DNA of 64,000 bases from Minisyncoccota bacterium (lineage in GTDB: Bacteria > Patescibacteriota > Minisyncoccia > Phycocordibacterales > UBA9973): positions 17,973 to 81,972 of the forward strand of contig JBAZSZ010000001.1 in the NCBI GenBank assembly GCA_041662205.1, in the 5' to 3' direction. Shown here piece after piece: positions 60,524-63,243 of this stretch. Below the pieces are notes generated by a model, which did no database searches, had not been told where the DNA came from, and worked only from the letters and a program-made list of their open reading frames with translations. Each line of letters begins with the position of its first letter. Position 1 is the stretch's first letter. The position numbers were made by a program, and so were the translations under genes.

Positions 60524-60576
60524 GTCGCCACGCCTTAATTGACTTACGCGGGATGATTTAGCTGAATCAATTTATG
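60524..60576 (+). promoter_or_regulatory. copy C of the conserved start-codon-abutting module (upstream of the dockerin protein gene)
   Basis: gtcgccaCGCCttaattGACttaCGCGggaTGATTTagctgAATCAatttATG. Confidence 0.5.
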
Positions 60577-61605
60577 TTGAATAATCCAGTTAGGGGAAAG
60601 TTGTTTATTTTAGGAATTTTTATTTCTATAATTTTTTTCGCGTCTCATATTTTAGCTTCAGAAAATGATGGAACAATTTCTTCTAGTTCTCAATATGCTT
60701 TTGGGGAGAATTTAGGTTGGATTAATTTTAGTTGCGATAATTGCAATGTTCATATTACAGATACTGGATTGAGTGGATATGCTTGGAGTTCTCAATATGG
60801 ATGGATAAATTTATCTCCGAGTGGAGGCGGAGTAACAAATAACTGTGCAGGTGAATTGGGTGGCAAAGCTTGGTCAAAATCATTAGGCTGGGTAGATTTT
60901 TCTGGGGCAGTAATTAATGCCGCTGGAAAATTTATCGGAATGGCAGGTACTCCTGGGACCAAAGCAGGGAGAATTAATTTTAGTTGTGATAATTGTGATG
61001 TTTCTACCGATTGGCTTCAATGCGCTCTACGGGAATCCCCAGCTCAGGTATTAATAAATTCAATTACTGATAATATTATTGCTTCAATTTCTGCAAATAT
61101 AAATATAACCAATGAAGGATCTGTCGATACTGAATATCAATATGAATGGTGTGTGGTTTCTGACATAGATAATTCTTGTGGCGGTGGGGATGATGTTTTT
61201 TATTCTTCTGCGGCCAAACTTCTCACAGTTGGACAAAGTTGGACGACAGACAAAATTGCCACAGTGCCAAGCATCGGAACTTATTATTTTAAAATTGTTG
61301 TTTATTATGGAATAAATTATTCTGTTGCCTCGCAAGTATTTACTGCTGTCTCTGACGGTGGACCTGGAGGTGGTAGCGGAGGGGGTGGAGAAACAATAAT
61401 ATTTTCAACAAATAACACTCATTACGATACAGCTGATTTTAACATTGATCATGTAGTAGATTCAGTTGATTTTTCTATTTTGTTATTTTTTTGGAAAAAG
61501 GAATCTCCATTTAGCAATATTTATGTAGATATTAATAAAGATGGAAACGTCAATTCAGTTGATTTTTCTATTATGCTTTCAGAGTGGGGCAAAAGAAGCG
61601 TATGA
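60574..61605 (+). CDS. secreted repeat protein with a C-terminal dockerin-like double Ca-binding module
   Basis: Signal/TM FILGIFISIIFFASHILA; four GWINFSCDNC/YGWINLS-type repeats; a Gly-rich linker; two dockerin-like segments ADFNIDHVVDSVDFSILLFFW and DINKDGNVNSVDFSIMLSEW. Confidence 0.7.
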   Translation: MLNNPVRGKLFILGIFISIIFFASHILASENDGTISSSSQYAFGENLGWINFSCDNCNVHITDTGLSGYAWSSQYGWINLSPSGGGVTNNCAGELGGKAWSKSLGWVDFSGAVINAAGKFIGMAGTPGTKAGRINFSCDNCDVSTDWLQCALRESPAQVLINSITDNIIASISANINITNEGSVDTEYQYEWCVVSDIDNSCGGGDDVFYSSAAKLLTVGQSWTTDKIATVPSIGTYYFKIVVYYGINYSVASQVFTAVSDGGPGGGSGGGGETIIFSTNNTHYDTADFNIDHVVDSVDFSILLFFWKKESPFSNIYVDINKDGNVNSVDFSIMLSEWGKRSV

Positions 61606-62213
61606 TAAAAAAAATAAACAAAAGAATAGAAACCTTATTTGTAATACTTATGTCTTTTTTATTTTTCTTTTTATTTGCGTCATTTTCTTGTGCTACTACT
61701 GAAATTTATTTTCAAAAAGATTTAAAAGAAATAACAAAGGGTGACACATTCTTAATAGATTTGAAAATATCTTCGACGAAAGAAATAAACGTCATAGACG
61801 GAACCATCATCTACGATAAAGATAAATTAGCAATAAAAGAAGTAACAACAAACAATTCGTTACTTTCTCTTTGGGTTAAAGAACCAGCTTTTAACAATGA
61901 AACAGGAGAATTGAGTTTTACTGGAGGATCACCAGAAGGTTTCCATAATAGAGATGGTCAGATTTTAAGAATTACCTTTTTGGCCAAACAAGCAGGTTCT
62001 GCCTTTATTGGTTTTAAAGATATTTTTTCTATTTTTATCAATGATGGGAAAGGAACCAAAATAAATCCATGGTTCAAACCACTGTCCTTATTTATTAATA
62101 AGAAAGTAAATCATTTTCTCAAATATATAGAAGTGTTGATATTCATTTTCATTATTTTCTTTATAGCATTTAGATTATTTTTAAAGTTTCGAAATAAAAA
62201 AAATGAAAAATAA
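61584..62213 (+). CDS. membrane-anchored cohesin-domain protein
   Basis: N-terminal TM/signal; cohesin-like beta-sandwich pattern KGDTFLIDLKISS...IIYDKDKLAIKEV...LWVKEPAF...GQILRITFLAKQAG; C-terminal TM VLIFIFIIFFIAF. Confidence 0.6.
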   Translation: MGQKKRMIKKINKRIETLFVILMSFLFFFLFASFSCATTEIYFQKDLKEITKGDTFLIDLKISSTKEINVIDGTIIYDKDKLAIKEVTTNNSLLSLWVKEPAFNNETGELSFTGGSPEGFHNRDGQILRITFLAKQAGSAFIGFKDIFSIFINDGKGTKINPWFKPLSLFINKKVNHFLKYIEVLIFIFIIFFIAFRLFLKFRNKKNEK

Positions 62214-63243
62214 AGTTTTAAAGCATTTTATTCAAAATAAAATACTCATATTAGTTTTAATAGTATTTTGTTTTATTTTTCCACAAAAAACTAATGCCGC
62301 TACTTTATCTATTTCACCTAGTACTGCAAATGTTTTTGTCGGTGATACTTTCGCTGTAAAAATAAATATAAATACTTTAGGTAAGTCAATTAATAATACC
62401 GAAGGCATAATCCAATTTCCAGTAGAGATGCTGGAAGTTCTCTCTCTTAGTAAAAATTCTTCAATTTTTTCTTTATGGGTAGAAGAGCCAAGTTTTTCTA
62501 ATGTTACCGGTAAAATAAATTTTAATGGGGGAGTACCGACTCCGGGTTTCGTTGGACAAAATGGGAATATACTCTCTGTTACTTTTAAAGCCAAGAAACA
62601 AGGAACTGTTCCTGTTATTTTTACAAATGGAGTTATTCGAGAAAATGATGGCTTTGGCACAAATATTTCTGGTAATTTAACTGGTGCTATATTCTATGTT
62701 ATTAATAAGGTAGCACCTTCTCCAACTCCTGCACCAATATCAACACCAATAATAAAATCTTTACCAAAAAACGTTCCTAAAATAGTATCTACACCAGCAC
62801 CAACATCTGTGTCAGAAGAAACACTAAAACCATTTCCTATTCTGAAGGCTCCGGAAATTATGCTTAGTATAAAAGACGGTGTAATGTCTGTCATCGGTTC
62901 TTCAGCAGATTATCCGCAAGCGGAAGTATTTATAACATTCGTATCTCAAATTGGAACAAAAATACTTATTCCTAGTGTTGCAGACAATCAAGGTAATTTC
63001 AGTGTCCTTGTTCCTAATTTATTAAAACCTGGTTCATATGCTGTTACAGCAACTATGATTAAAGAGGATAAAACAGCTAGCGAAGCTTCAAATGCAATTG
63101 TAGCCAAAATCAATAATAATATTTTTGGTATTACCTTTGAAATGTGGATATTCATTATAATTATGCTTATTCTAATATTGATTTTAATTATTGATGTTTA
63201 TTTAAGTTTTGTAAAAAATAGAAAAGATGGAAAGATGTTGTAA
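62203..63243 (+). CDS. cohesin-domain scaffold-like protein with a Pro/Thr linker, an Ig-like domain and a C-terminal TM anchor
   Basis: Signal peptide ...PQKTNA. Cohesin-like VGDTFAVKININTLGK...IIQFPVEMLEVLSL...LWVEEPSF...GNILSVTFKAKKQGTVPVIF, paralogous to the preceding gene. APSPTPAPISTPI linker; C-terminal TM IFIIIMLILILILII. Confidence 0.65.
   Translation: MKNKVLKHFIQNKILILVLIVFCFIFPQKTNAATLSISPSTANVFVGDTFAVKININTLGKSINNTEGIIQFPVEMLEVLSLSKNSSIFSLWVEEPSFSNVTGKINFNGGVPTPGFVGQNGNILSVTFKAKKQGTVPVIFTNGVIRENDGFGTNISGNLTGAIFYVINKVAPSPTPAPISTPIIKSLPKNVPKIVSTPAPTSVSEETLKPFPILKAPEIMLSIKDGVMSVIGSSADYPQAEVFITFVSQIGTKILIPSVADNQGNFSVLVPNLLKPGSYAVTATMIKEDKTASEASNAIVAKINNNIFGITFEMWIFIIIMLILILILIIDVYLSFVKNRKDGKML

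Follow-up and report, generated by a model that had tools for sequence, protein, structure and literature searches.

A probable membrane-anchored cohesin-dockerin operon for surface anchoring, conserved across the Paceibacteria

Three overlapping open reading frames (ORFs) at positions 60574-63243 of a 64-kb window (by which we mean the whole stretch of DNA analysed here) encode a secreted protein that ends in a dockerin and two membrane-anchored proteins that each carry one cohesin. [quoted passage not shown] The three-gene arrangement is conserved across the class, in hundreds of related species, and it probably constitutes a non-cellulosomal, membrane-anchored cohesin-dockerin operon for surface anchoring. 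An earlier note, made by a model from the sequence of the window, had described the genes as a minimal scaffoldin system and a compact three-gene pairing. The modules it named are present, with corrections given below. Scaffoldin overstated the case, since each anchor bears just one cohesin and a multi-cohesin scaffold is lacking. The pairing belongs to a class-wide cassette, and in the window the unit continues past position 63243 into a fourth gene.

Results

The three ORFs lie on the + strand at the coordinates given in the earlier note, and a fourth gene of the same orientation is cut by the window end.

60574-61605, + strand: g1, ORF of 343 amino acids (aa), secreted dockerin-bearing cargo protein
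61602-62213, + strand: g2, small cohesin anchor, 203 aa counted from the ATG
62203-63243, + strand: g3, large cohesin anchor, 346 aa
63276-64000, + strand: g4, truncated where the window ends; first 241 aa of a tail-fibre-like protein that is secreted

The start of g2 is listed as a GTG at 61584, but the ATG at 61602 is likelier and yields a protein of 203 aa, the same length as the orthologue in the closest relative (locus L001). The stop codon of g1 and the ATG of g2 overlap as ATGA, g2 and g3 overlap by 11 nucleotides (nt), and g4 starts at 63276, 32 nt beyond g3. Upstream of g1-g3 lie mreB, mreC and tgt, and the G+C content is ~34% throughout the window. The g1 protein is identical to an NCBI entry named 'dockerin type I domain-containing protein' and g3 to one named 'hypothetical protein', both from Candidatus Paceibacterota. 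All four proteins carry secretion signals. Hydropathy analysis located one hydrophobic segment, N-terminal, in each of g1 and g4, and one at each end of g2 and g3, a pattern that fits secreted g1 and g4 and type I membrane proteins g2 and g3.

The AlphaFold model of g1 (predicted local distance difference test, pLDDT, of 89.3) divides the protein into five parts.

60574-60660, + strand: signal peptide, residues 1-29, the sole hydrophobic segment in g1, with a helix at 5-21 in the model
60670-61014, + strand: GW-type beta-hairpin repeat module, residues 33-147, four repeats of short beta-strands with pLDDT >94
61042-61350, + strand: middle beta-sandwich, residues 157-259, MG2/Fn3/CARDB-like
61357-61419, + strand: disordered Gly-rich linker, residues 262-282, pLDDT <50 at 266-282
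61432-61587, + strand: type I dockerin, residues 287-338, two Ca-binding loops with a helix after each

Pfam Dockerin_1 (PF00404) matched residues 287-334 with an E value of 4.2e-7 and a score of 30.5 bits, above its cut-off of 22.9. Both 12-residue Ca-binding loops, DFNIDHVVDSVD and DINKDGNVNSVD, are intact, with Asp or Asn at positions 1, 3, 5, 9 and 12: the ligand positions are D288-N290-D292-D296-D299 in loop 1 (D288-D299) and D319-N321-D323-N327-D330 in loop 2 (D319-D330). A helix follows each loop in the model (297-305 and 328-336, pLDDT 90-96). Together with the N-terminal signal peptide, which is likely cleaved after ILA, these results bear out the earlier claims of a dockerin-bearing secreted protein and of two Ca-binding segments that form a dockerin pair. 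Searching PDB with the single g1 sequence returned only marginal dockerin matches and a profile was needed; the profile of the dockerin family (65 members) matched the solved type I dockerins 2vn5_B, 2yik, 4fl4 and 1daq with E values of ~1e-4. The linker, whose family consensus is poly-Gly, also bears on whether sandwich and dockerin form an X-module-dockerin dyad of type II or III. This candidate was rejected, given that ~17 Gly-rich residues with pLDDT <50 separate the two.

The N-terminal head of g1 had been described as four repeats of a GWINFSCDNC type. Four GW-type repeats are indeed present (residues ~41-147: YAFGENLGWINFS..., YAWSSQYGWINLS..., KAWSKSLGWVDFS... and ...KAGRINFS...), and they are also seen at the DNA level as repeat family D20, but the Cys-x-x-Cys or CDNC part ('INFSCDNC') is confined to repeats 1 and 4. 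No Pfam or NCBIfam family matched the module. An exhaustive search of 1.84 billion cluster representatives retrieved 3104 of them as relatives at E<=1e-3; in most of 150 listed relatives the module stands directly after the signal peptide, and the proteins that carry it span 127-3269 aa. Ten that were scanned were rich in immunoglobulin (Ig), PKD, cadherin, Fn3 and TSP3 domains. The module also occurs outside the candidate phyla radiation, in Methylomirabilis, Desulfuromonadaceae and Desulfobacterales (Desulfobacterota), and the GW-repeat head is a candidate new domain family for which Pfam holds no model.

The two genes behind g1 encode the anchors, whose layout is as follows.

~61716-62066, + strand: cohesin of g2, preceded by the signal peptide
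~62106-62195, + strand: transmembrane helix of g2, followed by a short basic tail at the end
62203-62298, + strand: signal peptide of g3 (layout of g3 from its AlphaFold model)
62299-62703, + strand: cohesin of g3, beta-sandwich at residues 33-167
62710-62847, + strand: Pro/Thr linker of g3, disordered in the model
62854-63111, + strand: Ig-like domain of g3, second beta-sandwich at residues 218-303
63136-63222, + strand: transmembrane helix of g3, helix 312-342 in the model, then a 12-residue tail

The hydrophobic segments of g2 comprise residues 8-33 and 169-198. Pfam Cohesin (PF00963) matched g2 with 25.7 bits (cut-off 24.1), and a hidden Markov model (HMM) of the family cohesins did so with an E value of 9e-27. 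The Pfam check proposed in the earlier note thus succeeded for Dockerin_1 on g1 and Cohesin on g2 and gave no Cohesin match on g3. The g3 protein is nevertheless related to g2 (36% identity over 149 aa, E 4e-23), and the top PDB matches of its model (pLDDT 87.7) in Foldseek were almost all cohesins, with probability 1.00; for single-module matches the target template modelling scores were 0.68-0.78 and the root mean square deviations 2.3-3.7 Å. They include Clostridium cellulolyticum 1g1k, 2vn5 and 2vn6, C. acetobutylicum 6kge, OlpA and OlpC of C. thermocellum, Archaeoglobus fulgidus 2xdh and C. perfringens 2w1n and 2vo8. According to the model, the N-terminal domain of g3 is predicted to adopt the cohesin fold, a nine-stranded flattened beta-sandwich (jelly-roll), and not that of an unrelated beta-sandwich. 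By sequence, neither g2 nor g3 found a PDB match when searched singly, and the cohesin family profile matched no solved cohesin; the fold search alone did. The Pro/Thr linker and Ig-like domain that the earlier note had assigned to the second cohesin protein were both recovered, the former in the g3 model and the latter also by profile matches to Lap/Bap bacterial Ig repeats (6xi3, E 1e-11).

As for the attachment of these proteins, the Pfam scan found no S-layer homology (SLH) domain and there is no LPXTG motif ahead of the C-terminal helix of g2 or g3. A sortase, exosortase or rhombosortase signal, which the C-terminal helix and basic tail could suggest, was ruled out, as none of the motifs LPXTG, PEP and GlyGly is present and the homologues have long tails on the cytoplasmic side. 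In most large cohesins a conserved, probably helical cytoplasmic tail of ~90 residues (~60-90) stands behind the membrane helix, and because most homologues run on into this tail, the C-terminal helix is best taken as a true membrane anchor. The tail is missing from g3 and retained in its closest homologues, which are 62-65% identical. With 203 aa, g2 is also ~100 residues shorter than a typical small cohesin of ~300 aa, and this genome holds a minimal version of both anchors. The earlier claim of two paralogous membrane-anchored cohesins therefore stands, on the Pfam match of g2, the g3-g2 similarity, the Foldseek cohesins of g3 and the C-terminal helices.

We then considered how widely the arrangement is conserved. 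A cohesin-seeded search with one genome per GTDB species returned 474 confirmed stretches, the best 79 loci of which were analysed, and dockerins and cohesins were called in the loci with HMMs built from the family. In 67 of the 79 loci a same-strand dockerin gene ends immediately ahead of the first cohesin gene; among the 12 exceptions, nine break off at a contig end, so that 67 of 70 assessable loci keep the order cargo-dockerin, small cohesin, large cohesin. Two cohesin genes were found in 63 loci, three in eight and one in eight. Seeding with the dockerin gave the same picture in metagenomes, where 76 of 78 loci hold cohesin genes, immediately downstream in 73, and where 74 of the 78 keep that order. 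A homologue search with the dockerin alone returned just nine short fragments. By title, the 79 loci belong to Patescibacteria, namely Paceibacteria and Nomura-, Zambryski-, Wolfe-, Komeili- and Niyogibacteria; many third party annotation (TPA) assemblies are titled 'uncultured Candidatus Saccharibacteria' and five 'uncultured Gammaproteobacteria', which we suspect to be placeholder names. Four contigs examined individually carry the cassette in unrelated housekeeping neighbourhoods. Since the arrangement is conserved in more than 140 independent loci, chance is excluded as its cause.

In locus L003, positions 11860-17014 behind the cassette encode an integrase of phage type, a nuclease of the OLD family (AAA_15/TOPRIM) and a DNA methyltransferase, and form a defence or mobile island beside it.

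The nearest neighbour of a small cohesin is the small cohesin of another species in 71 of 71 cases, and that of a large cohesin is a large cohesin in 68 of 71. Small and large cohesins of the same locus share 29% identity, compared with 53% among large and 35% among small ones. By these sequence comparisons the two are ancient, separate orthologous groups, and an old duplication with retention of both copies argues for distinct roles. All share a nearly invariant LWVxEPxFSN...FNGG stretch; strand 91-99 (LWVEEPSFS) and the loops that follow vary hardly at all. Mean pairwise identity among the dockerins is 0.60. Loop positions 1, 3, 5, 9 and 12 and the F-S-I triplet are conserved across 68 sequences, D-F-S-I after each loop is invariant, and the recognition stretch S-V-D-F-S-I-L/M-L is identical in both halves, which makes a symmetric dual binding mode plausible.

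A further feature was seen in about half of the family dockerins (loci L006-L084), where Cys residues flank both Ca-binding loops, in the columns of g1 residues 284, 291 and 317. The frequency of Cys is 57% at the position of residue 284 and 41% at that of 317, and g1 has Tyr at both; the flanking pair suggests a disulfide staple.

If the co-encoded modules were not partners, they would bind other things, such as host glycans, S-layer components or proteins encoded elsewhere, or the two membrane proteins would serve export or assembly of the cargo rather than act as a holdfast. We consider this quite unlikely. In its favour, the binding of cohesin to dockerin is here predicted from the modules, and the ~90-residue cytoplasmic tail of most large cohesins hints at something beyond passive anchoring. 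Wang et al. 2023 (PMC10633639) also speculated that host glycans are the target of an essential protein with a dockerin domain in a Saccharibacterium. A strict 1:1:1 adjacency in more than 140 loci, combined with near-invariant dockerin and cohesin motifs, is however the classic signature of cognate partners, and both folds match canonical interacting modules.

Conservation of the anchors goes along with a cargo of variable size, which runs from 334 to 1575 residues in complete proteins and exceeds 3300 where contig ends cut the gene. In g1 and 11 other cargo proteins scanned, Pfam identified MG2, Fn3, InlB-B (Flg_new_2) or Ig-like repeats in addition to Dockerin_1, and a sandwich of the MG2/Fn3/CARDB type stands before the dockerin in nearly all cargo proteins. 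In the same scan, none of these 12 proteins showed a glycoside hydrolase, a carbohydrate-binding module or an enzyme domain of another kind. This agrees with the view of the earlier note that the genes of this Paceibacterota genome do not serve cellulose degradation. Apart from the cohesin and dockerin modules themselves, nothing speaks for a cellulosome-like polysaccharide-degrading assembly, which is very improbable: besides the lack of enzymes and of carbohydrate-binding modules, there is one cohesin per anchor instead of a multi-cohesin scaffold, and scans for the Ca-loop motif and with the family HMM found no second dockerin in the 64-kb window.

The fourth gene ties the cassette of this genome to tail-fibre-like proteins. 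The first ~80 residues of g4 are 59% identical to an 861-aa protein encoded behind the cassette of L001, the closest relative. The L001 protein contains Peptidase_S74 (Pfam PF13884, 50.1 bits against a cut-off of 22), a C-terminal intramolecular chaperone, and both it and g4 gave weak PHROG tail-fibre matches. The window ends 241 residues into g4, and the S74 domain is known from its orthologues. Among L001-L084, nine of nine loci with g1-type cargo have a gene of this S74 (g4) type next to it, and so do 24 of 24 metagenome loci with such cargo that could be assessed, five others being contigs of <=3.2 kb. With an HMM built from seven sequences, family HMM searches found no S74 gene in ~110 loci with other cargo. 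On account of this co-occurrence, the functional unit in this genome comprises at least four genes and reaches beyond the three of the earlier note. As a rule the fibre gene stands first and is followed by g1, the small cohesin and the large cohesin; in the window the fibre comes last.

Three loci (L004, L086 and L097) have a second cargo, which is larger, comes with one or more cohesin genes of its own and stands ahead of fibre and g1. The order there is large MG2 cargo, cohesin or cohesins, S74 fibre and g1-type protein, with two dockerin cargos flanking the cohesin genes, of which L004 (1-9029) and L097 have two and L086 one that was detected. From this layout, a single anchor set may serve two or more cargos.

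That g1-type cargo and S74 genes strictly co-occur speaks for a functional link between g1 and g4. g1 may be the adhesin itself or an adaptor for the g4 fibre. As an adaptor, the GW head of g1 would hold the conserved N-terminus of a trimeric S74 fibre g4, in a chain that runs from the membrane through cohesin and dockerin/g1 to the fibre, whose tip would recognise the host. We judge this possibility to be on the unlikely side. It would account for the adjacency of S74 genes to g1-type cargo in all assessable loci and for their absence, by HMM, from the loci with other cargo. The fibre gene lies directly beside g1 or comes after the cohesin pair, a conserved N-terminal motif with Cys is common to the g4 orthologues, which themselves carry neither dockerin nor cohesin, and elsewhere the cargo itself is very long, as if fibre and dockerin had been fused. 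On the other hand, the GW module is generic, as judged from its 3104 cluster representatives and its presence outside the candidate phyla radiation, and two GW-module proteins whose contigs were examined have no S74 neighbour; the small number of sequences behind the S74 HMM also counts here, and the g1-g4 interaction is a prediction.

The same matches of g4 and its orthologues to PHROG tail-fibre families and Peptidase_S74 could indicate a prophage or a phage-derived tail module, and an integrase follows one related locus. This origin is highly improbable. Neither g1 nor g2 has a PHROG match, the cohesin has no relatives in 2.9 million viral contigs (IMG/VR), the cassette sits beside the housekeeping genes mreB, mreC and tgt, genes for capsid or terminase are absent, and secretion signals are present on g1 through g4.

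Upstream of g1, the earlier note had identified one of four conserved start-codon modules. The module is real and consists of a 37-nt element in four copies (repeat family D3).

60534-60570, + strand: copy at g1, ends 3 nt before the g1 start codon
26685-26721: copy at gyrB
31533-31569: copy at rnc (RNase III)
59186-59222: copy at tgt

The copies follow the consensus CTYAATNGACTTRCRCGNNRTGATTTNGCNRAATCAA and end -1 to +3 nt from the ATG start codons of gyrB, rnc, tgt and g1. With the adjoining upstream bases, the element is predicted to form two short hairpins, the first GCGC-rich and the second TGATTT-N4-AAATCA, with two compensatory changes among the four copies and little covariation. It also holds a TTGACT-like (-35-like) hexamer and, 17 nt on, an xxxAAT (-10-like) hexamer. 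Rfam gave no match, and a relaxed pattern search did not find the element in seven related loci. It may be a promoter/operator or a structure of the 5′ untranslated region.

Three other observations were made in the window. The ORF at 14429-16618 (729 aa) contains, at 15839-16381, a Pro/Thr-rich tandem repeat of CCAAC/CCCAC units; it is probably another surface protein with a Pro/Thr linker, and family HMMs found no dockerin or cohesin in it. Two adjacent paralogous genes at 5742-6218 and 6334-6816 encode proteins of 158 and 160 aa and share a 172-nt stretch with 72% identity (repeat family D2). Finally, tgt (59223-60497) encodes a tRNA-guanine transglycosylase in which Pfam TGT matches in two stretches, with a low-complexity insert …QKLENQKQARSQVLGSPGPQPRPDHSPELVSDFPQ….

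Discussion

We propose that Sec would export g2 and g3 and that their C-terminal transmembrane helices would fix them in the cytoplasmic membrane, each protein exposing one cohesin outside the cell, with that of g3 raised on a Pro/Thr stalk and an Ig-like spacer. Secreted g1 would plug its Ca2+-dependent C-terminal dockerin into the g2 and g3 cohesins, and with the C-terminus thus engaged, the N-terminal GW-repeat head would face outward from the cell. For cargo of the g1 subtype, g4, the secreted S74 protein encoded next to it, would work with g1. Because the same two anchors would hold cargo of very different size, the cassette has the look of an all-purpose holdfast with which Paceibacteria would fasten adhesin-like surface proteins; its purpose would most plausibly be contact with a host cell or surface. 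The pairing of dockerin and cohesin, its stoichiometry and the adhesion role are deduced from conserved adjacency and from the canonical behaviour of the modules.

Several points weigh against a surface-anchoring operon of this kind. The assessable cohesin loci L071, L081 and L083 have no adjacent dockerin gene, and the g1-type locus L088 has no adjacent cohesins. Pfam Cohesin did not match g3, and the majority of family cohesins score under the Pfam threshold. The proposal does not account for the presence of two cohesin proteins per dockerin, and the host-adhesion role is read solely from domain content and the assumed lifestyle of the candidate phyla radiation. A bolder and doubtful version of the proposal would have the cassette be the principal envelope holdfast of Paceibacteria, built as a three-part clamp in which two diverged cohesins grip one symmetric dockerin, one per half. 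It would tether interchangeable giant adhesins or tail-fibre-like fibres, and the cytoplasmic tail of the large cohesin, lost here, would couple host contact to the cell interior. We know of no canonical full-length dockerin with such a stoichiometry of two cohesins.

Use of cohesin-dockerin modules outside cellulosomes is an established concept, so that our observations extend a known principle rather than introduce a new one; a survey of non-cellulosomal pairs was reportedly made by Peer et al. in FEMS Microbiol Lett in 2009. The toxin and glycosidase complexes of C. perfringens (2w1n, 2vo8, 2jh2) and the A. fulgidus module (2xdh) have the same folds in non-cellulolytic extracellular assembly, and structures of both rank among the Foldseek matches of g3. 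Here, in contrast, single cohesins stand on dedicated type I membrane proteins that are two ancient paralogues, they are encoded right after the dockerin cargo in a class-wide cassette, and the cargo is non-enzymatic. Closer in design are the anchoring scaffoldins (SdbA, OlpB, Orf2p, OlpA and OlpC of C. thermocellum, 3ul4 and 4dh2; ScaE of Ruminococcus flavefaciens, 2zf9), in which an envelope-fixed cohesin captures a dockerin partner, as proposed here; the cohesins of OlpA, OlpC and ScaE are also structural matches to g3. Those proteins use SLH or sortase (LPXTG) anchors and hold enzyme-laden scaffoldins, whereas the cassette has a transmembrane helix, usually a cytoplasmic tail, and no enzymes. 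The Cel5A dockerin of C. cellulolyticum (2vn5/2vn6), which has a dual binding mode, gave the best profile matches to the family dockerins, and its halves likewise repeat the recognition stretch. The recognition residues of the family are however almost invariant between species instead of species-specific, and ahead of the dockerin stand a conserved beta-sandwich and a poly-Gly linker. Regarding g4, its orthologues share the S74 domain and the tail-fibre likeness with phage tail fibres and endosialidases that carry Peptidase_S74, but g4 is chromosomal, has a signal peptide and housekeeping neighbours, and is tied to the cohesin-dockerin cassette with no phage genes.

What distinguishes the cassette is the use of membrane-helix anchors, an obligatory and ancient cohesin pair, a near-invariant dockerin on a hypervariable cargo of Ig arrays, and a sub-variant linked to tail-fibre-like proteins. 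No description of it was found in full-text literature that combines cohesin or dockerin with group names of the candidate phyla radiation, the nearest remark being that on the essential dockerin-domain protein of a cultured Saccharibacterium (PMC10633639). Many members already bear a cohesin- or dockerin-domain name given by the NCBI pipeline; that most cassette cohesins fall below the Pfam threshold explains their under-annotation. The cassette also reveals a chromosomal tail-fibre-like S74 protein tied to an anchoring system, and its cohesin-dockerin pair, divergent from the cellulosomal ones, might serve as an orthogonal part for protein assembly.

How ultra-small members of the candidate phyla radiation attach to hosts and surfaces is largely obscure, especially in the uncultured Paceibacteria (Parcubacteria). 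In hundreds of species, the operon joins adhesin-like cargo that is hypervariable to what would be a constant plug-and-socket anchor, and thereby gives direct molecular targets for studies of attachment.

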